From NCBI GenBank assembly GCA_965218695.1, contig OZ244651.1, positions 1,664,001 through 1,728,000 of the forward strand: DNA of 64,000 nt. The letters are read 5' to 3'. The position numbers were made by a program, and so were the translations under genes. The notes below the pieces were generated by a model, which saw nothing but the letters and a program-made list of their open reading frames with translations, did no database searches and was not told the DNA's origin. Positions 1-42,211 of the stretch are shown here, in pieces (position 1 is the first letter of the stretch; every line of letters begins with the position of its first letter). This stretch comes from Nitrosopumilus sp. Lineage in GTDB: Archaea; Thermoproteota; Nitrososphaeria; Nitrososphaerales; Nitrosopumilaceae.

Positions 1-1313
1 AATTCTGGCCCCGGGTTTTTCATGGTCAGGGTGCGGATGATCTCGCGGAGGTAGTGGTAGTGGCACTTTTGGTGGGTCCTGCCGATGCGGTTCCACGCAG
101 CGTGTGAATCAGAGGTGACGTGGCCTGCGTACCCTCCAAACAGGGTCTCCAGCACGTCTCCTCCCCGGCGCTTGTCCACGTAAAAGACAGTCGAGTTGTC
201 ACCGACTAGTATCCACAGCCAGTACAGCACACCGGCTACCCTCCAGCTGGTCTCGTCCCCGAAGACATGCTCTGAGAAGAATATCTCCTTGAGCATCTCC
301 TCGTAGAGCGGGTGGAGGGATCCTGTCACGGCATCCACGTGGCCGATGACAGTCGACTTGGCAAGGTCCGTGTGGTAGATTATGTTGATCAGCTTGCGGA
401 TGGGTTCGTAGGGAATGTTGTACATCCTCATCGTCGTCTCAAGGCACGTCAGGCTGGCGCCGAACCGTCCGCCGGGGACGACCCCTGGGATCTCGGGGGC
501 AAACTGCCTGCCGCATTCCCTGCAGTACCTGCGGACGACGGTATACTGGATGCCGGTCAGCTTCCCGTCGATAATCTCCTCGACTACCCGGATGGTCACC
601 TCGGTGGGCTCCTTCGAGAGGGCATGGCCGTGCGGGCAGGCGGGCATGTCGACTAGCTTTTTTTCGGATATCGGGGGAGGATCACGGCCGGTGCGCAGGC
701 AGACGACCTTCCTGAACGGGTCTGGTGCAGGCCCGGGTGATTCCCGGAGCCGCTTCTGGGAGCGGCGGCTTTTGATGCCCAGATTCTCGGCTGCCAGCGC
801 CGAGTTGGCCGCGCGCGCCTCCCTTAACTGAGAGGCATGCTCTGATGCCTGCTGCTCCAGGCGGGCTATCCTGTCCATGACTGCCTGCGAGACGTCGCAT
901 CCCTGCAGCAGGGCGGCATTCTCTGCCCGCAGCTTCTCTACCTCTACCTTCAAATTCTCCATATCTCCTCCCAGATTCTCTATCTCTGCATCTTTCAGCT
1001 CTATCTCGGAGTCCTTTTGTTCTATCTCGGAGTCCTTTTGTTCTATCTCGGAGTCCTTTTGCACATTCTCTTCTTCCAGCAGTTTGATCCTGGCATCCAT
1101 CTCCGTCAGCATCGCATGTTCCCCTGAGAAGGCCTCTGCCTCCTCCTTCAGCTGCTCGATGTCTTTTCTCAGCGCCATGCTCTCCTCGTCCTTGGATTTG
1201 AGCATGTCCAAGACGGATTCGAAGAGGGACTTGGTGTCGGTTACGGAGTTCCAGTCAATCTTTTCCAAGTCGATTACAGGCACCACGCCATAACACGGGA
1301 AGGCATGATCCAT
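1..1313 (-). CDS. IS66-family transposase (single ORF), 3' end runs off the window
   Basis: Manual translation from ATG at 1313 is open to the window edge: coiled-coil N-terminus, CPHGH...YCRECG zinc finger, GDETSWRV, VTSDSHAAW and HQKCHYHYLRE motifs. Absent from the ORF track because no stop codon lies in the window. Confidence 0.88.
   Translation of the reverse strand, partial: MDHAFPCYGVVPVIDLEKIDWNSVTDTKSLFESVLDMLKSKDEESMALRKDIEQLKEEAEAFSGEHAMLTEMDARIKLLEEENVQKDSEIEQKDSEIEQKDSEIELKDAEIENLGGDMENLKVEVEKLRAENAALLQGCDVSQAVMDRIARLEQQASEHASQLREARAANSALAAENLGIKSRRSQKRLRESPGPAPDPFRKVVCLRTGRDPPPISEKKLVDMPACPHGHALSKEPTEVTIRVVEEIIDGKLTGIQYTVVRRYCRECGRQFAPEIPGVVPGGRFGASLTCLETTMRMYNIPYEPIRKLINIIYHTDLAKSTVIGHVDAVTGSLHPLYEEMLKEIFFSEHVFGDETSWRVAGVLYWLWILVGDNSTVFYVDKRRGGDVLETLFGGYAGHVTSDSHAAWNRIGRTHQKCHYHYLREIIRTLTMKNPGPE
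1000..1062. repeat. 3 x 21-bp tandem repeat (QKDSEIE heptad) in the IS66 transposase
   Basis: tctatctcggagtccttttg(t/c) at 1000, 1021 and 1042. Confidence 0.95.
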
Positions 1314-2056
1314 AAAGCTTTTGGGCACGCAGCGCCTGCCGGAAAATGCGGCGCAAAAGATCCAACCGGAAGAGCCTTGATCCGAAAACCGCTCTGCCTG
1401 CCTGAGGACCGTGTTGATAACGTGCAATTAATCGGGTATTTATGGTCAAAAACGTAGCTCAGTTGGTAATTAATCGGAACAGATCAGGCACGGAATCGCT
1501 TCGCAAAGGCGACCTCTTACCGGAATAGTCAGATGCAGAAGTGAGGACGAGCTGCCCATCTGTGATTGCAAAGTCGTCGGCATCGGCACCCGTAACCTCG
1601 TAACTGTCAATGTCCGTATCAAAGCCCACACGTGCGGATATGTTACCCACCAGTATCTCGCTGTTGTCAACTGACTCATTCTCCAGAATGATGAACCATT
1701 GCCCCAGATTATGGTCGAATGCGGTGGCATCAGAGAACATGAAACTCATGTACCTCACCTGAGACACGTTCCAGCCAATGATGTCTGCGTTGAAGGAGCT
1801 GGCGGTAGAGAACATGGATCTCATGTCTGTCACCGTGGAGACGTCCCAGTCGGAGATGTCTTGGTTGAAGGAGCTGGCGCCAGAGAACATTAGAAGCTAT
1901 GCGTAATCCTTCCATTTCGCTGGATTAAACCGGAAAATTCCGGAAAATATTAAAAATTCTGATTTAATTCTCGCCATGTTAGCCATGTGGGGATCCTGTC
2001 CTGCCCGAAATACGAAATAACGTGCGCAGCCTTGCAGCACCACGATGTGCACGGGA

Positions 2057-3373
2057 TTAATTGTTTGAGACGGCGCTGCCGGGGGCGTTTGCCTGTTCCC
2101 AGTTTATCACCGGCCCCAGATTGCCGCCTGAAGGAGGCGGTCCCTTCTCCAGGTAGTTCCACACGAGGTCCAGGTTTACAAGCCCGGCTATTATGTTAAA
2201 TTCCCTGTTAAAGTCGCCAATCTTTCCTTTGTATGGCGCGGTAAGCCGGCCGTACCGCTTCAGCCTGCCGATGGAGTGCTCCACCTTTACCCGGGCGGAG
2301 TTGATTTTATGGTTGTGCTCTTTTTCCTCCTTTGTAAAGCGCTTGTGGTTCTTGGTCTTCTTGTGCGGCTGCAGGGTGTTTGTGCCGGGCAGATCCTTTG
2401 CAATTCCCTTGTAGCCGCGGTCAGTAAGGGTGTGGATCCTGTCCTCTTCGGGGGTGTTCTCGTCGCACATGCGGTCCCACCATTTTCCAAATGGCAGCGG
2501 GCTCTCCCTGAGCAGCGTGATGTCGTGGACGGATCCCACGGTGCTGCCGGATATGGCGACTATCACCCCGTTTTCGTTTATGCACACGGTGGTGTTGAGC
2601 GTGAATTTCTTCTTCTTGCCAGAATACATCATGCTCCTCATCTGTTTTTCGTCCGGCCTCTGTATGGGGCAGTGCGTGCCGTCGATCATCATAATGCCCC
2701 CGTCAGGCCCGGAAATTATTTTTTTGAGATCCTCTTTTGTCTCCGTGTCCTCTATCTCCTTTGAGATGTTGGCAGCGGTGGGCAGCACCGCCTCAAGCAC
2801 CCCGTCTAGTACATCGATATACCGGGACACGGTCGCCTGGTCTATTCCAAAGAATGCCGCAAGCACGCCCTGCGTGGGGTTGCCCTTTTTGTACATCAGT
2901 GACATGAGCAGCGCGTGCCTTGGGTACAGCTTGCAGCGGTTCCCGGGATCCGACGCCCTCGTCTCGTCACTCCTGAAGAGCGGGGATTTGCCGCTTTGCC
3001 TTATCCACGCCTCGGCCCTGTCAAGCATGTATTGGAACTGTTCCCTGCGCTTCAGCGTCGCGTCATGAAGATTTTCCCCGACTCTGATGATCTCATCAAG
3101 CACCTCCACGCGGTGCAGCAGGGCGGGCTCTCCTGCGGCTCCGGACTCGGAGCCGTCCCGTGTGCGCCACAGGCTTTGCTCGTGCCTGGCAGCTGCGTCC
3201 TGGCGCTTGATGTCAGCGTCCTGGCGCTTGATGTCAGCGTCCTGGCGCTTGATGTCAGCGTCCTGGCGCTTGATCATGTCTCTGAGAGCCTTGTTCTCTT
3301 TTTGCAGGTCACTTGTTTTCTGTTCCGACAACAGTATGAACCGGCATATTCTGGTTTTAATTGGATGGATCAT
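2057..3373 (-). CDS. DDE transposase (HTH_Tnp_4 + DDE_Tnp_4 type)
   Basis: LAAFFGIDQATVSR HTH, IDGTHCPIQRP, YSGKKK, DRGYKG, RVKVEHSIGRLK motifs. Confidence 0.92.
   Translation of the reverse strand: MIHPIKTRICRFILLSEQKTSDLQKENKALRDMIKRQDADIKRQDADIKRQDADIKRQDAAARHEQSLWRTRDGSESGAAGEPALLHRVEVLDEIIRVGENLHDATLKRREQFQYMLDRAEAWIRQSGKSPLFRSDETRASDPGNRCKLYPRHALLMSLMYKKGNPTQGVLAAFFGIDQATVSRYIDVLDGVLEAVLPTAANISKEIEDTETKEDLKKIISGPDGGIMMIDGTHCPIQRPDEKQMRSMMYSGKKKKFTLNTTVCINENGVIVAISGSTVGSVHDITLLRESPLPFGKWWDRMCDENTPEEDRIHTLTDRGYKGIAKDLPGTNTLQPHKKTKNHKRFTKEEKEHNHKINSARVKVEHSIGRLKRYGRLTAPYKGKIGDFNREFNIIAGLVNLDLVWNYLEKGPPPSGGNLGPVINWEQANAPGSAVSNN
3195..3274. repeat. about 4 x 21-bp tandem repeat (KRQDADI heptad) in the transposase
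   Basis: gcgtcctggcgcttgatgtca at 3195, 3216, 3237 and a partial copy at 3258. Confidence 0.95.
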
Positions 3374-4467
3374 AAATTTTTGACAGCAGGACTAACGTCA
3401 ACGCGGAGTTTGAAAAAGTTCTGGATTACGCATATTTTCTATTGCACCCAGGTCTGTCACCTTGGAGACGTCCCAGCCGGAGATGTCGGCGTTGAAGGCG
3501 TAGGCCTGATAGAACATGTAATCCATATCAGTCACACCCGAGACGTTCCAGTCGGAGATGTCGCCGTTAAAGGCGTAGGCCTCGGCGAACATGTATGTCA
3601 TGTCAGTCACGCCCGAGACGTTCCAGTCGGAGATGTCGCCGTTAAAGGCGTAGGCCTTGTTGAACATGTAGTGCAGGCTGGTCATTAGGGACACGTCCCA
3701 ATTGGACAAGTCGCCGTCAAAAGCTTCGGTCTTGTAGAACATGTTAAGCACGTCGGGGTCGGAGGAGAGATCAGGCGCATCGGTTGCCTCGTATTGCATG
3801 TTGACGGCATCCCTGAACATCGCTTCCATGCTGGACCATTGGGTATCGCCCCACTGGTCTACAGACAGCAGCAACTGCGGGGTATCGTACATTACGGCAA
3901 GCCGAGTGTCATAGTCAAAATAGAAGCGTTGCAGGTCGCCGGTGATTGCGACTGTGGCGCTAGTGGGCGTGCCGGGACTGAGGTTTGTGTAATAGTGTCG
4001 CGGTTCCCCCGTCGCGTTGTACGTGTCAGTATCGCCATCACCCCAGTCTACGTGCACTTCTCCACCGGATTCCACGCCTATACTAAACTTGACCTCGGCG
4101 AGGCTGCTGGGGGCAGAGGTAGGCGGTCCGGTAATGTTCCACGTGGTGACAAAGGCGGAGCTAGGCGGTTGCGCATACGCATTCGGCAACAGTATTGAAT
4201 TTGCCACCACCACCTCTGTCATGTCAGTCCAAGCACTGGCCACAGGATACAACGAGTTGTTCGCCCCTGTCTGCCACGACTCGTCGTGAAATACCGCATA
4301 CAATCCCGATACCATCACCGCGCCCAGTAGCAGCAGCATGGCACCTGCAGCAAGCCGCCTGCGTGATTTGAAGTTGTAGCATACCTCATAGTTTAGAATA
4401 CAACGAAGCGCAGACATTTGTCAATTTATTTCAAATTATTTATAATTAGTGCGTGTGATCAAAGATT

Positions 4468-4701
4468 TTACAAATGGAGTTCATTAAATAAGCTGTTTTC
4501 GCGGTTTGCCTTTTTCTGGCCGCAGGCGATACACCACTTATCGTGGTGGCATTGGTTGCACAGAAGCACCAAACTGGGTCCAGCATCATGCTTACCACAA
4601 GCATGCAGACATGGCGTAAACGGAAGCTCAACTTCTGCCCAAGAATTCGGCCGTCTCCTGAATGCATGTGTCTGGTCCATGCCGATACGAAACGCGTACA
4701 T
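4468..4701 (-). CDS. small Cys/His-rich hypothetical protein, possible zinc finger
   Basis: CLHAC, CNQC and CIAC motifs in a 77-aa ORF in a gene-sized gap. Confidence 0.35.
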   Translation of the reverse strand: MYAFRIGMDQTHAFRRRPNSWAEVELPFTPCLHACGKHDAGPSLVLLCNQCHHDKWCIACGQKKANRENSLFNELHL

Positions 4702-5052
4702 CAGCGCCTGACTCTGCTAGATGGATAATGGCATCAGAGATCCTAAGGCAAAATGGCATCCGCGATTTCTTGTATTCATACTGCCTGTGCTGTTCTCGAT
4801 AGTGTTTGGCTATGCGGCAATGGCCGACATACTTCAAAAGCCTGACCACGCCTTCAATGTGGGCCTAGTCGAGATTCAATCTCATGACTTCCAAGGGGTA
4901 TCGTAGGATCCCCGATAACTTCTGCCATTATTGGATGGATCGCGTGGGGGATCCGTACCCACTGTGCGAGTCCCTTTATGCCCGCATGATCTTGAGCCGT
5001 TCTGGAATGATTTGGTCGTACAGGGAGAGGAGCGCTCAGGATAACGTTACGC

Positions 5053-6555
5053 TCAGGACGCAGCTGCGTCCTCATCGCTGCCAACAATCCTGCCCACCTC
5101 GTCTCCCAGACCCTCGATGCACGTACTTATCCTGTTCTCCCTCTTTGTGAGATCCGTCCGGTACCGTTCTATTGCGGCAACGCGGTCTGATATCATCCTC
5201 TTTTGCTCGGCATACCCGGACGAGCCGTACGAGTTTCTGGCCTTCATGGAGGATGCAACGGTGGTGGAGGACACTATTCTGGACACAACCTCCGAGTCCA
5301 CCCCGGTGTCCTCGACTGACTTTAGTATGTCTGCAGAGTCAAGCCTCCGAATGGGCCTTTTGGACATGTGTGCTGCCTGCACCAGGGAGCCTGCAATCTT
5401 GTGCGTGATGCGGAACGGAATCCCCTCCAGCACCAGCCGCTCTGCTATGTCAAGGGCTATCAGGTTACCGGATACGGCAGCCCTTCTCATCTGTTTTTCA
5501 TTGACCCTCATGGTAAGTATCACGGACCTCATTATCAGCAGCGCGCTGACTGACATTCTTGAGGCAGCCCAGACAGGCACCTTTATCTGCTGCAGGTCGC
5601 GCCCGTATCCGGAGGCCAGCCCCTTGAGGGCGGACAGGACGGCAACCAGGCTCCCGATGGTGTGTGCAGTCTTGCCGCGGGTCAGCTCCAGTATGTCAGG
5701 GTTCTTCTTCTGCGGCATGACGCTTGACGGGGACGTGAACTCGTCTGCAAGCTCGACAAATGAAAACTCTGATGTCGACCACACCACAAGGTCCTCTGCC
5801 ATCCTGCTCAGGTTGGTCATCATAATGGATATCATGGCGATGTATTCTGCCACAAAGTCGCGCGTTCCCGTGGCATCCAGAGAGTTCTCTACAAGCCCGT
5901 CAAATCCCAGCATTCGGGCCGTGTCATGCCGGTCGATCGGAATGCTGGTCCCGCCTACCGGGCCTGCGCCAAGCGGGCTCAGGTTGACTCTCTCAAATGT
6001 TCCGTAAAGCCTTTGAAAGTCCCTCAGCAGGGCGTCTGCCTGTGCCAGAAGATAGTGCGAGAAGAGTCCGGCCTGGGCCTGCTGGAGATGCGTGTACAGC
6101 GGCATGACTGTCCTCTGGTGGATTCGGGCCACCGATATCATGGCCTCTGCCGTATCCAAAAGACACCTGCAGGCGGCATTGATGTCATCACGGATCTTCA
6201 TCCGCATGTCCAGAGCCACCTGGTCGTTCCTGGAACGGGCAGTGTGCATCCTGCCGCCTGACTCCATTCCGGCCCTTTCAATCACCATGGACTCTATCAT
6301 CTCGTGGACATCCTCTGCTGCACCTGATGCTGATGCTGCAGCAGCAACAGCAGCCCCTTCGTTCCGGATATCATCCAGTGCAGACAGTATCCTCTTCAGA
6401 TCATGCATCTTCAGGATTCCGTTCCGGTGGAGCATCAGCACGTGCGCCTGGCTTCCAAGGATGTCATAGCGTATAATCTCAGAGTCGTCCTCAACAGACG
6501 AGACATACTTGAGTGTAACGTCGTCCAGATCATTTCCAAGGCGGGAACGATACAT
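5053..6555 (-). CDS. argH: argininosuccinate lyase
   Basis: HTARSRNDQV, YTHLQQAQ and SSVMPQKKNPD signatures. Confidence 0.97.
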   Translation of the reverse strand: MYRSRLGNDLDDVTLKYVSSVEDDSEIIRYDILGSQAHVLMLHRNGILKMHDLKRILSALDDIRNEGAAVAAAASASGAAEDVHEMIESMVIERAGMESGGRMHTARSRNDQVALDMRMKIRDDINAACRCLLDTAEAMISVARIHQRTVMPLYTHLQQAQAGLFSHYLLAQADALLRDFQRLYGTFERVNLSPLGAGPVGGTSIPIDRHDTARMLGFDGLVENSLDATGTRDFVAEYIAMISIMMTNLSRMAEDLVVWSTSEFSFVELADEFTSPSSVMPQKKNPDILELTRGKTAHTIGSLVAVLSALKGLASGYGRDLQQIKVPVWAASRMSVSALLIMRSVILTMRVNEKQMRRAAVSGNLIALDIAERLVLEGIPFRITHKIAGSLVQAAHMSKRPIRRLDSADILKSVEDTGVDSEVVSRIVSSTTVASSMKARNSYGSSGYAEQKRMISDRVAAIERYRTDLTKRENRISTCIEGLGDEVGRIVGSDEDAAAS

Positions 6556-6604
6556 CAACTATGATTCTTGAATGGTTATATATAGCATCGACGCTTTTGC
6601 CGAC

Positions 6605-6919
6605 ATGAGCCAGGAAATCAAACAGATGAGGGTAAAGATATTTGACGAGCTCTCCAAGATAATGGATCCCGAGATAAACACGTCGATAGTGGAGCTGGAG
6701 CTGATAGACGAAGTTGACATCAAGGACAAGAACGTCAATGTCGACTTGCACCTTACAAGCCCGTTCTGTCCTGCGGTATTTGGTTTCAAGATATGCCAGG
6801 ACATTCATGACAACCTCCTAAGGGTGGACGGCGTAGACGATGTCAAGGTGAACGTATCAAACCACTTCATGGCAGAACAGATCAACAACCAGGTAAACAA
6901 CAGTCCAAAGCCGGCGTAA
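6605..6919 (+). CDS. DUF59/SufT-like metal-sulfur cluster assembly factor
   Basis: IMDPEINTSIVELELI and LTSPFCP motifs. Confidence 0.9.
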   Translation: MSQEIKQMRVKIFDELSKIMDPEINTSIVELELIDEVDIKDKNVNVDLHLTSPFCPAVFGFKICQDIHDNLLRVDGVDDVKVNVSNHFMAEQINNQVNNSPKPA

Positions 6920-36911: not shown

Positions 36912-38074
36912 TATACCTTTCCTACCGTCACGGGCATAACCCGCACTGGTGCCAAATAGAGTCAAAAGTTTGCACCAAACAGTGCGTGCCATGACGTGCC
37001 CACACCAAGGCAAGCTGACACACGCCATTAGGCCTGTTTTTTTTATTTTGATTTCCCATGGGATCCCTGGGCACTCAGGTTGTCTCATGCGGTCTTACAA
37101 AGACCTTCATGACGTCAGGCCGCCTTGCGTGTTCTACTGCCTCGGAGAATCTTTCCAGCGGAAAGGTGGAATCAATCACGGATTCGACGGATATAATTCC
37201 GGATGCAAGCGCCTTGATTGCAGGCTTGAACAGGCCGCATCTGGAGCCCACAATGGTCACCTCGTTTATCACTGCAGGGGTAAGATTCGGATTCCCCCTT
37301 GATGCGACAGTGGACTTTAGTATTATGGTGCCCCTTGGCCGTACGAGCCTCATGGTGTCGGCAAACCCGGAGTTGCTCCCGGAGGACTCCACCACCAGAT
37401 CATATTGCTGTTCATCAGGGGAGCCTATCCCGATCTTGGTCGTTATTCCGAATTTTGCCAGCCGGGCAAGCTTGCTTTTGTGCCTTCCAAAGCACGAGAC
37501 GTGCGGGCAGGCAATCCTGAGTACCTGGGAGATCAGATGCGCCAGCCTGCCATCGCCCACTACTGCAACATTCCATTCGGGTTTCAGGCGGATCTGCTCT
37601 GCAATCTCAAATGCTGCAGCCAACGGTTCCACAAATACTGCCTGCTCGTCACTCATCGAGTCGGGGATGGGGTGCAGGTTCCTTTCAGGGAGCGAGAGGA
37701 GTTCTGCAAAGGCGCCGTCCCGCCCCAGTATTCCAAGGACTGTCCTGTCAGGACAGTGCCTTGCCATTCCCCGGGCACAGTACCCACATGTATCGCATCC
37801 GGCATTGATCTCGCCTACGACCCTCCGTCCGATCATCCCAGGATTCTCAGATTTCAGGACTGTTCCGACAAACTCGTGGCCCATGATGCCCCTGTATCCC
37901 ATGTAACCGTCAAGAATCTCCAGGTCGGTTCCGCAGATTCCCGCCAGGTCGACCCTGACAAGCGACTCTCCGGGTTTTGGAACCGGATGGTTCTCATCCA
38001 TGACTGCATGTGGGAATTACATACAAAAGTTACATTCTTACCGCATTTTTTGGCGTTTTCTCGGCAAATGGCGC

Positions 38075-38083
38075 TTTTAAATA
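38075..38083 (+). promoter_or_regulatory. candidate archaeal TATA box for a leaderless tnpB transcript
   Basis: TTTTAAATA about 25 nt upstream of the TTG start at 38106. Confidence 0.45.
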
Positions 38084-38105
38084 ATAACGCGCCATATGTG
38101 CAATA

Positions 38106-39461
38106 TTGATCCTCACCAAAACGCTCCGCGTCAAGCAATCCAAAGAAAATTCGTCAAAGATATGGGATCTGCACCACGCCGCAAGGTGGTGTTTCAACGA
38201 GGGAGTAAAAACTATGTTCACGCGCGACATTTCTTCAAGAAAGGCAGAAGGCTTGCTGACAAAACTCCGGAAGGAGCAAAAATGGCAGCTGAAATATCCA
38301 AGAAACATGCTGCGCGCAAATTTCAACAACGGCTGCAAGGCTGTCAATTTGGCAAGAGCTGTCCGGAGGAAAAACAAGACGCCGCCTCCGTTAACGCCTG
38401 ATCCGTATTTCAGGAGGAAGCAAGGCGGCAGGCAGCCCGCGATCAGCTCGTTTCAAAAATTAAAGATCATCAAAAACACGCTGAACATGGGGCCGTGCAA
38501 GATTGGGTTGGCCGACGCGTGCGACGAGGAAATAAAATCGTTCCAGATAGTCGAGACCACGCGCAAGATAACCAGACATACAAGGCCCGAAGACCGCACG
38601 TACGAACTGCACGTCCAGTACGAGCACGTCCCAATTGCCAAAAAGGACGGCGACGCCAAGGCAATAGATCTCGGAGCCGACAACATGATCGGCATGTCGG
38701 TGCTGGACAACGGCTCACACGAACTGATAAAGCTGCCAAAAGGCGCAAAGAGGCACAAGCATGACGCCCTGGCAAAAAGGCAGTCAAGACAGTCCAAGAG
38801 GCACAAGAACGGCAGGAATTACAGGCAGGAACAGAGGCGGATCAACAAGAAGAACCTGAAGATAGTACGCAAAAAGGCTGATTTCGTGCGCAAGTCATTG
38901 TGCAGGATTTTCAAGGACGCGGCCGTCGTGGTGTTGGAAGACTTGAAGACGGCCCAACTCATAGGCAAGGGTTATGGAAAACGTGGGCTTAACAGGACGC
39001 TGTCTTATGCCTCGCTCGGCTACGTCAAGGATGAAATAATCCAGCATTGTGCCAAGAACGGCATCCACGTAGTTTTGGTAGATCCGGCATATACAAGCCA
39101 GACGTGCTCGGTTTGCGGGCACGTGGACAAAAAATCGAGGGACGGAGAAAAGTTCCAATGCACGAAGTGCACGCTGGCAAATCACGCTGACATCAATGCC
39201 TCGGAGAACATGGTTTACAGGGCGGTATCAGGGGCGGCAGGGAATGTCGTCTGCAAGCAGAAGGACGGCATGGGACGGATCGCCCTCAAGGTGAAAAAGT
39301 TCCAGAAGGAGAGAACCAATCCGGACCGTTTCCAGTTTGGCTCCAGGAGCCATGCGGGGCATTATTGCGGGAGGGCTGATGCCCATCTGCCCGCAATGGT
39401 GCCATTGCTGCTAGAAAAACACGAAAGTTGCACCAAGAAACGGTGTAACTTTTGTATGTAA
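38106..39461 (+). CDS. tnpB: RNA-guided endonuclease TnpB family protein
   Basis: AARWCFN, RuvC-I AIDLG, RuvC-II VVLEDL, VDPAYTSQTCSVCG...CTKC zinc ribbon, RuvC-III HADINASEN. Confidence 0.93.
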   Translation: MILTKTLRVKQSKENSSKIWDLHHAARWCFNEGVKTMFTRDISSRKAEGLLTKLRKEQKWQLKYPRNMLRANFNNGCKAVNLARAVRRKNKTPPPLTPDPYFRRKQGGRQPAISSFQKLKIIKNTLNMGPCKIGLADACDEEIKSFQIVETTRKITRHTRPEDRTYELHVQYEHVPIAKKDGDAKAIDLGADNMIGMSVLDNGSHELIKLPKGAKRHKHDALAKRQSRQSKRHKNGRNYRQEQRRINKKNLKIVRKKADFVRKSLCRIFKDAAVVVLEDLKTAQLIGKGYGKRGLNRTLSYASLGYVKDEIIQHCAKNGIHVVLVDPAYTSQTCSVCGHVDKKSRDGEKFQCTKCTLANHADINASENMVYRAVSGAAGNVVCKQKDGMGRIALKVKKFQKERTNPDRFQFGSRSHAGHYCGRADAHLPAMVPLLLEKHESCTKKRCNFCM

Positions 39462-39605
39462 TTCCCCTGCATGCCTTCCATCAAAGCAGATGGCTCTCAT
39501 GGTACGGCTGTATTCGTGCCGGGTTTTAAAATAACTGATTTGTATCGGAACCGGCATGCCACACACGGGATGCCAATTAATAATCGGAGGTATTTCAGAC
39601 TGCAA

Positions 39606-40031
39606 ATGAGTTATCGGTTTTTGGATCATGCAACGGATGCAATCGTTGAGGTGGACGCAAAGGATCTCAAGGAAGCCTTTGCGGTGGCTGCCCGTGCAGT
39701 CATAGACCTGACCATCGACCAGGGTACGGTGGCAGAGAAGGGCCAAAGGCAGTTTTCGGCAGGCGGCAAGGATCTGCACTATCTTCTGTTCAGCTGGCTT
39801 GAGGAGGTCGTGTTTGTGCTCATTACGGAGGGGTTTGCAATAGCCAGGCTGGAACTTGACCTAGAGGAGGAGACGACTGGCGGCACCCACAGGATACACG
39901 CAAGGGCGTACGGCGAACCGCTTGACCTCCGCAGGCACAACTTCAAGGTGGAGGTAAAGGCACCCACGTTTTACGACATGCAGATCAGCGAGAAGGACAG
40001 GGTCCGCATGAGGTTCCTGCTTGACTTGTGA
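39606..40031 (+). CDS. archease
   Basis: YRFLDHATD, LFSWLEE, EVKAPTFY, FLLDL. Confidence 0.92.
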   Translation: MSYRFLDHATDAIVEVDAKDLKEAFAVAARAVIDLTIDQGTVAEKGQRQFSAGGKDLHYLLFSWLEEVVFVLITEGFAIARLELDLEEETTGGTHRIHARAYGEPLDLRRHNFKVEVKAPTFYDMQISEKDRVRMRFLLDL

Positions 40032-40099: not shown

Positions 40100-42211
40100 A
40101 TGATGCAGACGGTGGCAATATTTGCGGTTCTTTCGCTGGCCATCGTTGCGATCATCCCCGCATATGCAGAGGTTACCTCTATGTCACTGACAGAGGATTC
40201 ATTCTCTGTAGATCAGTCCTTTACCATCAGCGGCATCAATGATGAGGGGGGAATAGTCAATGTAATCATTAGAAATTCCAACGGAGATTATAAGGGATTA
40301 GTATCCGGCAGAGCTGTAGGAACTGGTGATGGCTTTGAGACAATTGCCAAGCCGGTATCGGATTTTTTCACTTCATCTGGGGTTTACACTGCCACTGGAT
40401 TTGTGGGGAAACAGAAAGAGGCTGACGGTGTAATCATCCAGATACAGTTTGACGGAGGTAAAATCTTTGAGGCTCCAGACTTTGAGCTAAAACTCAGCGC
40501 CGTCCGGGACAAGAGAGTAGAGACAGGGGAGAGACTGACGTTTACTGCAACCACCACGGATCGCAGCCTGACGGGTGTGGAATATAGCCTAAGGAGGGAC
40601 GCGCCTGTAGGTGCCACGATAGATGCAGAGACGGGCAAGTTTGAATGGACGCCTGCTGCATCGCAAGGGTCAGAGCGTGGAACCGAGTATAATTTTGATA
40701 TTGTGGTAGAAAAATCATCCCAGGAGGACAGGCAGTCAGTCAGGATTACCGTGACGGTGGCTCCCCCACCGGAGCCCGTACTGCAGATACCTGCCCCGTT
40801 TGTTGAGGCCTCAAATGGCCCCCAGTACTACGTGGACAGGTACAACAACGAGCCAAGCTACAGGGATTGGTTTGATTCCACATACCCAGGGTACGCCTCA
40901 ATATACCAGGCAGTTGGACTAGATGAGCCTCGAGCAGAACCAGTAGCAAGCGATACGCTTGTGATTCCTGCCCCGTTTGTTGAGGCCTCAAATGGCCCCC
41001 AGTACTACGTGGACAGGTACAACAACGAGCCAAGCTACAGGGATTGGTTTGATTCCACATACCCAGGGTACGCCTCAATATACCAGGCAGTTGGACTAGA
41101 TGAGCCAGGGGCAGGCCCTGATACACCAGACGGTTCCCAAGGAACCTCAAATGAGACCCCTGTGATTCCTGCCCCGTTTGTTGACAAAACAAGGGATCCC
41201 CAGAGCTACGTGAACAGGTACAACAACGAGCCAAGCTACAGGGAGTGGTTTGACAAGACACATTCAGAGTACGCCTCAATATACCAAGCAGTGGGACTAG
41301 ACGAGCCCAAGGAGCTGGCACCGTTTGTAGACCCCGCACAGGATCCCCAGTACTACATAGACAGGTACAACAACGAGCCGGACTACATGGAGTGGTTTGA
41401 CAGGACGTACCCCGACATTACAATCTATGACGCAGTGGGCGTTGATCCGCCCAAGGAGCTGGCACCGTTTGTAGACCCCGCACAGGATCCCCAGTACTAC
41501 ATAGACAGGTACAACAACGAGCCGGACTACATGGAGTGGTTTGACAGGACGTACCCCGACATTACAATCTATGACGCAGTGGGCGTTGATCCGCCCAAGG
41601 AGCTGGCACCGTTTGTAGACCCCGCACAGGATCCCCAGTACTACATAGACAGGTACAACAACGAGCCGGACTACATGGAGTGGTTTGACAGGACGTACCC
41701 CGACATTACAATCTATGACGCAGTGGGCGTTGATGAGTCAGGAACGGAGGCGCCGGAGGAGGAATGCGGCAAGGGAACTGAACTTGTAGACGGCCAATGT
41801 GTGGCCACATCTGACAACGGCGGCGGATGCCTTATTGCGACAGCAGCATACGGATCCGAGATGGCACCACAGATCCAGATTCTCAGGGAGATTCGTGACG
41901 ACCAGCTGATGAACACCGCATCGGGCGAATCATTCATGACAGGGTTCAACCAGGTATACTACTCGTTCTCGCCATCCGTTGCAGACTACCAGAGGGAGAA
42001 TCCGGCATTCAGGGAGATGGTCAGAGTCGGAATAACCCCGCTGCTATCGACGCTGTCAATCATGGAACACGCAGATACCGAGACGGAGGTCTTGGGGTAT
42101 GGAATCGGTGTGATTCTGCTTAACCTTGGAATGTACGTCGCAGCACCGACGATGCTGCTGTTCTTCGGGATAAGAAGGGCCAGACGAGTCCTTGTCAAGA
42201 CTGCAAGATAG
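40100..42211 (+). CDS. CFI-box-CTERM surface protein with Ig/cadherin-like domain and six Tyr-rich repeats
   Basis: Signal peptide; GGGCLIATAAYGSEMAPQ...LREIRD; repeats APFV....PQYY.DRYNNEP.Y..WFD.TYP....Y.AVG. Confidence 0.88.
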   Translation: MMQTVAIFAVLSLAIVAIIPAYAEVTSMSLTEDSFSVDQSFTISGINDEGGIVNVIIRNSNGDYKGLVSGRAVGTGDGFETIAKPVSDFFTSSGVYTATGFVGKQKEADGVIIQIQFDGGKIFEAPDFELKLSAVRDKRVETGERLTFTATTTDRSLTGVEYSLRRDAPVGATIDAETGKFEWTPAASQGSERGTEYNFDIVVEKSSQEDRQSVRITVTVAPPPEPVLQIPAPFVEASNGPQYYVDRYNNEPSYRDWFDSTYPGYASIYQAVGLDEPRAEPVASDTLVIPAPFVEASNGPQYYVDRYNNEPSYRDWFDSTYPGYASIYQAVGLDEPGAGPDTPDGSQGTSNETPVIPAPFVDKTRDPQSYVNRYNNEPSYREWFDKTHSEYASIYQAVGLDEPKELAPFVDPAQDPQYYIDRYNNEPDYMEWFDRTYPDITIYDAVGVDPPKELAPFVDPAQDPQYYIDRYNNEPDYMEWFDRTYPDITIYDAVGVDPPKELAPFVDPAQDPQYYIDRYNNEPDYMEWFDRTYPDITIYDAVGVDESGTEAPEEECGKGTELVDGQCVATSDNGGGCLIATAAYGSEMAPQIQILREIRDDQLMNTASGESFMTGFNQVYYSFSPSVADYQRENPAFREMVRVGITPLLSTLSIMEHADTETEVLGYGIGVILLNLGMYVAAPTMLLFFGIRRARRVLVKTAR
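41306..41734. repeat. 3 x 144-bp identical tandem repeat; a second near-identical pair lies at about 40789-41106 with 177-bp spacing
   Basis: Units begin cccaaggagctggcaccg at 41306, 41450 and 41594. Confidence 0.93.

Follow-up and report, generated by a model that had tools for sequence, protein, structure and literature searches.

A tnpB-only element with terminal inverted repeats and IS1595-type ends in the genome of an ammonia-oxidizing archaeon, Nitrosopumilus sp.

Introduction

Cas12 descends from TnpB, whose natural role is established in the case of single-strand transposons of the IS605 type; to our knowledge, the service of TnpB to classical DDE transposons is barely explored. The stretch of DNA analysed here (64,000 nucleotides of a Nitrosopumilus sp. 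genome, contig OZ244651.1, positions 1,664,001 to 1,728,000; hereafter the window) contains a tnpB gene enclosed by perfect terminal inverted repeats (TIRs) and flanked by a target-site duplication (TSD), the whole interrupting an alcohol dehydrogenase (ADH) gene. The locus raises the question of what kind of element this is and which enzyme moves it. Most probably it is a tnpB-only, non-autonomous IS1595-type element of Nitrosopumilaceae-type archaea, mobilized in trans, and it may operate with an omegaRNA and a target-adjacent motif (TAM).

The element and its insertion site

The features of the locus comprise, in window coordinates:

38012..39466, plus strand: whole element, 1455 bp, tnpB-only, read as non-autonomous, with IS1595-type ends
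38004..38011, no strand: left TSD copy (CTGCATGT), its last base unlike that of the right copy and of the empty site
38012..38034, plus strand: left TIR (GGGAATTACATACAAAAGTTACA), with termini conserved in 41 related elements
38065..38098, plus strand: hairpin-forming inverted repeat in the 5′ leader directly upstream of the tnpB start (13-nt arms, 85% complementary, 8-nt gap)
38106..39461, plus strand: tnpB open reading frame (ORF), 451 aa, RuvC D-E-D and zinc ribbon intact
39237..39466, plus strand: candidate omegaRNA scaffold, overlapping the ORF tail and the right TIR (blastn, covariation, folding)
39421..39455, plus strand: hairpin at the end of the candidate omegaRNA, with the inner half of the right TIR as 3′ arm
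39444..39466, minus strand: right TIR, including the TAA stop codon of tnpB
39467..39474, no strand: right TSD copy (CTGCATGC), which would supply the first bases of the predicted guide
38000..38003, plus strand: putative TAM position, ATGA in the window element, with A as the -9 base
37075..38003, minus strand: interrupted zinc-dependent ADH gene, 3′ part
39467..39500, minus strand: interrupted ADH gene, 5′ part, 11 codons and one base

An inverted-repeat search of the window discloses TIR arms of 23 nt each, 100% complementary, and the 23-mer with at most three mismatches occurs at only two places in the window, the two arms themselves, against none expected (100 shuffles). According to the ORF list, tnpB is the one credible ORF between the arms, and its TAA stop codon (39459-39461) sits within the right TIR. 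An earlier note on this DNA had described a 1455-bp element with a lone TnpB, bracketed by perfect 23-bp TIRs that no other insertion sequence (IS) end in the window shares, and had placed the split of the ADH gene after codon 11; all of this is borne out. The sequence CTGCATG stands at both 38004-38010 and 39467-39473, followed on the left by an additional T at 38011. The flanks are best read as an 8-bp TSD, CTGCATGT versus CTGCATGC, matching at 7/8 positions, with the mismatch at the base adjoining the left end of the element; the duplication reported in the note stands, its length, left there at 6-8 bp, being best taken as eight. A 9-bp TSD with correspondingly shorter ends was also considered and set aside, its register being incompatible with both the window element and the related element L043.

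The ADH gene is broken within codon 12, the first 11 codons (MRAICFDGRHA) lying on the minus strand at 39467-39500. The uninterrupted allele that the note had proposed to look for in relatives occurs in the genome G002, where the ADH orthologue (94% protein identity) carries a single target copy, and a continuous ADH N-terminus is encoded in six more relatives. Moreover, in three sequencing runs from three studies (X5, X6, and X7) a contig joins 38003 to 39467 with 7 shared letters, omitting 1463 nt, that is, the 1455-bp element and 8 nt, with flanks ~95% identical to the window. The empty site carries CTGCATGC, like the right TSD copy, whereas the left copy (CTGCATGT) differs. At low depth, X5 also contains contigs that match the occupied junctions without a difference, and both alleles are thus present in one sample. 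The insertion into the ADH gene is recent and specific to the window's strain. The genome to which the window belongs (G000, 99.99% complete, in which the window is C1:1664001-1728000) contains just one copy of the element. Separately, X7 includes contigs ~95% identical to the element (window 38058-39467) that end at 39466-39467 and continue into another flank, which points to a related copy inserted elsewhere, in a different sample.

The TnpB protein

The 451-aa protein matches the Pfam families OrfB_IS605 (35.3 bits, cut-off 30.5) and Cas12f1-like_TNB (63.9 bits, cut-off 26.3), and its residues 49-377 align with the ISDra2 TnpB chains 8bf8/8exa. In an alignment of eight family members, the RuvC acidic residues D188, E278, and D362 and the zinc-ribbon cysteines C334, C337, C352, and C355 are invariant, in keeping with the catalytic triad and zinc ribbon listed in the earlier note; judged by its sequence, the window TnpB is intact. 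A profile search of 1.84 billion proteins returned 23,851 TnpB matches, with only ~16 representatives at 229 bits or above, and a scan of JGI metagenomes with peptide patterns of the clade gave 103 pattern matches, with no relative among them.

A family of tnpB-only elements

Protein searches place the relatives of the window TnpB in two genomes of the same genus (Nitrosopumilus sp.), and remoter relatives turn up in further genera of that archaeal family. A total of 41 distinct tnpB-only elements, oriented by tblastn, were assembled from ten genomes (G000, G018, G002, G320, G140, G105, G174, G184, G152, and G046), leaving aside (i) L122, which is the L095 locus; (ii) L086 and L096, whose left ends lie past a transposase gene; (iii) L111, a short element; and (iv) L050, L052, and L114, each with a single end only. 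All 41 elements start with GGGAATTA(C/T)ATA-like and finish with TAATTCCC-like termini, and 34/41 display an 8-bp TSD, perfect in 27 and matching at 7/8 positions in seven. This architecture accompanies TnpBs with identities to the window protein as low as 22-32%. At the other extreme, genome G018 contains four copies of 1503 bp with 95-99.6% identity, located at different sites and flanked by different duplications.

A quick maximum-likelihood tree comprises 39 TnpBs, with the truncated L016 dropped and L101 relabelled once its right end was found. All 26 end-linked TnpBs fall in one clade of 30 rows (Shimodaira-Hasegawa-like approximate likelihood ratio test support, SH-aLRT, 92), in which four proteins without family ends are nested, and nine shorter TnpBs lie outside. 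The end-linked TnpBs may have a single origin, with which the tree is compatible.

The elements also show irregularities at one end. The base next to the left end carries the TSD mismatch in the window element, L043, and L100, three of the seven single mismatches, and in L038, L040, and L043 the left TIR opens with T or A in place of G; no such first-base change occurs at the right end, the irregularities clustering at the junction upstream of tnpB. Recombination between L041 and L042 was considered as the cause of the missing TSDs of these two elements and rejected, their flanks having no cross-match. A multi-copy TnpB family of G002 (L034 and L036) was likewise rejected as a member type, because its terminal repeats are different and imperfect (TATAG...GCGAAAGTTCGTGCAA) and a clear TSD is lacking; its TnpBs nest inside the same TnpB clade. 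The second tnpB element of the window's genome, L051 (G000:C1:2314663-2322532, element 1000-6871), measures 5872 bp between its TIRs and has a perfect 8-bp TSD; its surplus length is due to an insert of ~4.4 kb that contains three more transposase-like ORFs (354, 383, and 386 aa).

IS1595-family elements with the same ends

The earlier note had called for a transposase-bearing element with the same ends, and several exist. Terminal-motif mapping in G140 and G105 gave pairs of termini at unusual spacing, and the G140 elements L109 (2837 bp) and L110 (2690 bp) display GGGAATTATATAC termini and perfect 8-bp TSDs. Both encode a 320-aa protein with the domains DDE_Tnp_IS1595 (E = 1e-40) and Zn_ribbon_IS1595, together with a passenger gene whose product joins a DNA methylase (N6_N4_Mtase) to an HNH nuclease in one fusion. 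In G184, the transposase gene lies directly upstream of tnpB, with both genes within one pair of GGGAATTA termini: in L175 (2562 bp) the IS1595 transposase next to tnpB is intact and the TSD matches at 8/8 positions (GATACCGG), and L176 (2601 bp) preserves the same layout and an 8/8 TSD with the transposase disrupted. The TIRs of the autonomous elements L153 (G123) and L173 (G398, a genome of the window's genus) match those of tnpB-only elements over ~20 nt, and the outer 9-13 nt of the termini are identical in L109, L110, L130, L133, L160, L168, L174, and L175. Among 401 genomes of the archaeal family, the tnpB clade occurs in 10, the transposase in 16, and both in 7, counts that refer to related and not independent genomes.

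The ISfinder end consensus of the ISNwi1 group, ggnnatTAT, would fit GGGAATTAT. IS1595-family elements are usually flanked by 8-bp TSDs, as stated in PMC8101967. The window element itself encodes no DDE_Tnp_IS1595 transposase, while sister elements with the same ends do, and it is therefore filed as a non-autonomous derivative and not as IS1595 proper. The family-wide TIRs and TSDs, the IS1595 elements with the same termini, and the two elements that combine transposase and tnpB support the proposal of the note that a non-autonomous DDE-type transposon carrying TnpB is moved in trans, where TnpB might recut empty sites.

A candidate omegaRNA at the 3′ end

Between divergent elements, blastn alignment is confined to the last ~240-440 nt. 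RNAalifold on 25 sequences predicts 14 pairs, 9/14 with compensatory changes, including a helix in which a conserved GGGA pairs with the terminal UCCC, and the last 254 nt of the window element give a folding z-score of -5.3. In the 14-bp terminal hairpin (39421-39455), 10/14 pairs change on both sides among 16 sequences; its covariation score of 0.376, compared with 0.195 in shuffles (0/500 reach it) and at most 0.152 in slid controls, refers to a hairpin that was itself drawn from the window sequence, a choice in its favour, and to a region that also codes for the protein tail. Covariation and folding support a structured 3′ RNA that overlaps the right TIR and is probably the omegaRNA, an assignment made with moderate confidence. 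An Rfam search of the region gave no match at E up to 1. Besides the derivation of the hairpin, two points count against the assignment: the hairpin may act as DNA rather than RNA, and among the sequencing runs listed for the locus none is an RNA run.

The short element L111 (G105:C1:1710543-1710860, 318 bp) comprises both ends and ~200 omegaRNA-like nt, 81% identical to L175, and is a candidate stand-alone omegaRNA in the form of a miniature inverted-repeat transposable element (MITE), resembling the stand-alone omegaRNAs mentioned in the main text of PMC10691335.

An oriented target base and the putative TAM

Read in the direction of tnpB, 35/41 elements carry G immediately 5′ of the left TSD copy, at position -9 (binomial P = 9e-15, background 0.27), compared with 10/41 at the mirror position on the other side (Fisher P = 4e-8). 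Further out, a purine occupies -12 in 32/41 and A or T occupies -11 in 30/41. Transposase-bearing elements without tnpB carry G at 4/16 ends, the background frequency (Fisher P = 3e-5 versus 35/41), in a control that comprises only eight elements with clean TSDs. For a guide that begins at the right terminus, the last TAM base would have to lie exactly at the biased position. Whether the oriented G is TAM-related is, on these alignments, close to an even call, and the bias could originate in target choice, in homing into empty sister copies, or in the survival of copies protected from loss.

The best-surviving alternative accepts IS1595-mediated mobilization in trans and holds that the G at -9 is unrelated to a TAM, reflecting sampling or a preference of the transposase for target or orientation on these particular ends, with TnpB as a passenger that has some other role or no role at all; we regard it as possible, if on the doubtful side. 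It gains from the bias being strong at a single position and weak at -12 and -11, since known TAMs span 4-5 nt, from the small control, and from the strong homing selection that 85% G would require. It also accommodates the A found at -9 in the recently inserted window element and in both elements with transposase and tnpB (L175 and L176), which speaks against a TAM. It fits poorly with the symmetry of the TIRs in tnpB-only elements, which leaves a transposase without obvious means to sense the orientation of tnpB, with the position of the biased base, and with the background frequency in transposase-only elements.

Proposed mechanism and the source of mobility

The preferred reading, a tnpB-only element moved by an IS1595-type transposase, would operate as follows. 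In this group of the IS1595 family, tnpB and a guide-RNA gene would have replaced the transposase gene. An IS1595-type transposase acting in trans would recognize the GGGAATTA... termini, cut the target with an 8-bp stagger, and insert the element, here into the ADH gene. The omegaRNA would be transcribed, probably, from the last ~230 nt and end at the right terminus, with flanking DNA, beginning with the 8-bp duplication, as the guide. An empty allele, in which the TAM is followed by the duplication and the right flank, would then be recognized and cleaved by the TnpB complex, favouring retention or homing of the element. A further-reaching reading, which we think somewhat improbable, is that in this archaeal IS1595 group the RNA-guided nuclease determines the sites at which the DDE transposon inserts or its copies persist. 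If true, tnpB-bearing elements would sit in a fixed orientation 8 bp downstream of a TAM-like G, TnpB and omegaRNA would serve a classical TIR/TSD transposon as a module for addiction or homing, and TnpB might keep tnpB-only copies spreading in genomes that have lost the transposase.

Several observations weigh against mobilization in trans. Seven of the 41 tnpB-only elements have no TSD, and in G140 only the outer 13 TIR nt are common to autonomous and tnpB-only elements. Above all, the transposase is missing where it would be expected. The window's genome is extremely IS-rich, a self-BLAST census giving ~200 repeated segments of at least 900 bp and 55 family representatives, none of which has GGGAATTA-like ends; near-matches to the TIR core elsewhere in this genome were dismissed as chance. 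A search with PF12762 returned no match in G000, which contains three short transposase remnants only, without recognizable ends, and the transposase search found none in G002 and only a truncated copy in G018, despite the near-identical G018 copies and the recent insertion in the window. The transposase may have been lost recently, may reside on DNA outside the assemblies, or another enzyme may be the mover. With no cognate transposase left in G000, the window copy is probably stranded now. Apart from this, one G000 repeat family comprises ~30 or more copies of ~1.5 kb.

The missing transposase, the main weakness of trans mobilization, is at the same time the main support for an autonomous element, in which TnpB, alone or with a host factor, would catalyze TIR-dependent insertion with an 8-bp duplication. 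The RuvC domain of TnpB has the same fold class as DDE enzymes. An autonomous TnpB would account for tnpB as the only gene in 41 elements, for a target bias that follows tnpB orientation and is not seen in transposase-only elements, and for G000, G002, and G018, in which an intact IS1595 transposase is not found despite 99.6%-identical G018 copies and a recent insertion. Nevertheless, bona fide IS1595 transposase elements, with or without tnpB, have the same termini and the same 8-bp duplication, which explains the ends without a new TnpB activity; metagenome-assembled genomes can miss transposase-bearing plasmids or viruses; and TnpB is dispensable for the transposition of IS605-type elements, according to PMC3119063. 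We consider an autonomous TnpB very improbable.

A one-off nested event, in which an IS605/IS1341-type tnpB landed in an unrelated MITE and the TIRs and TSD have no connection with tnpB (the scenario named in the earlier note as contrary to its proposal), could point to the short TIR-bounded element without tnpB (L111) and to a hairpin near each end of the window element (38065-38098; 39421-39455), but it is excluded for practical purposes by an architecture that recurs in 41 independent insertions across 10 genomes, whose TnpBs diverge to as little as 22-32% identity, by different flanks and TSDs that rule out segmental duplication of one locus, by the tnpB stop codon within the right TIR, by a hairpin arm that belongs to the TIR and shows covariation with it, by two end hairpins that are unlike each other, and by the nature of L111 as a deletion derivative of a tnpB 3′ end.

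Neighbouring genes

An archease gene (Pfam PF01951, residues 48-185) adjoins the insertion at window 39471-40031 on the plus strand; the listed ORF begins inside the TSD, and the true start is probably a later ATG near 39606. Further downstream, a 703-aa ORF (window 40100-42211, plus strand) displays a signal-like N-terminus and many tandem repeats of ~50 aa (…PQYYVDRYNNEPSYRDWFD…).

Significance and comparison with known systems

One family here supplies a natural series, comprising (i) elements with the transposase only, (ii) elements with transposase and tnpB, (iii) elements with tnpB only, and (iv) candidate omegaRNA-only elements. Together with co-occurring empty and occupied alleles and an orientation-tied bias, this series opens the question of retention or homing in a DDE transposon to experiment. 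To anyone who screens such nucleases, the family further offers TnpBs of archaeal origin and compact size (~450 aa), along with a candidate TAM and a predicted guide start.

Compared to the IS1595 family, of which Merlin is the eukaryotic kin, the window element shares TIRs starting with GG and an 8-bp TSD, and its sister elements have both family domains and, in some cases, passenger genes; unlike that family, it has no transposase, tnpB is its only gene, and the right TIR doubles as part of a predicted structured RNA. With the IS1341-type elements of the IS200/IS605 group it shares a single tnpB gene, a length of ~1.4-1.5 kb, and the protein family, whereas those elements are moved by Y1 or serine enzymes and integrate beside a short target motif. 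Mobilization of the window element by a Y1 (HUH) enzyme or a serine recombinase is made less likely by its TSD. Prokaryotic tnpB-only elements are described as lacking TIRs and TSDs by Bao and Jurka (PMC3627910), the view that the earlier note had followed, as are IS1341-type elements there and in PMC3119063, in contrast to the 23-bp TIRs and 8-bp TSD of the window element.

Fanzor1, as presented in PMC3627910, is likewise a TnpB homologue in DDE-type TIR transposons, often non-autonomous with an intact nuclease gene; unlike the window element, its carriers are Mariner, IS4-like, Sola, MuDr, and Helitron elements, and its hosts are eukaryotes and their viruses. Neither Merlin nor IS1595 is mentioned in PMC3627910 or PMC10530073.

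The closest parallel is found in Altae-Tran et al. 2023 (PMC10691335), whose main text reports (i) DDE transposases replacing Y1 or serine enzymes beside TnpB; (ii) six DDE-associated TnpB branches (DDE-1 to DDE-6) with inverted terminal repeats; and (iii) solo TnpBs with ends nearly identical to those of transposase-bearing relatives, taken as trans mobilization. A prokaryotic TnpB with TIRs, treated in the earlier note as a departure from the norm, is accordingly not unprecedented. Like those branches, as the main text portrays them, the present group places a prokaryotic TnpB within an inverted-terminal-repeat transposon, with the 3′ end of tnpB near the transposon end, and combines a DDE transposase and tnpB in one transposon (L175, intact; L176, disrupted). 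On the other hand, that main text names only IS630 (DDE-6), and it makes no mention of IS1595, of Nitroso- names, of an 8-bp TSD, or of an oriented target base. The present clade may correspond to one of the six branches or to none of them. A full-text literature search combining IS1595 and TnpB gave nothing relevant by title or abstract, and the IS1595 link, the overlap of repeat and omegaRNA, and the oriented target base were not found in print in these searches, though supplements may contain them. DDE-linked TnpBs with inverted repeats, including solo copies moved in trans, are therefore a kind of system already published in 2023; what is new in detail here is the link to IS1595 and the orientation-dependent target base.

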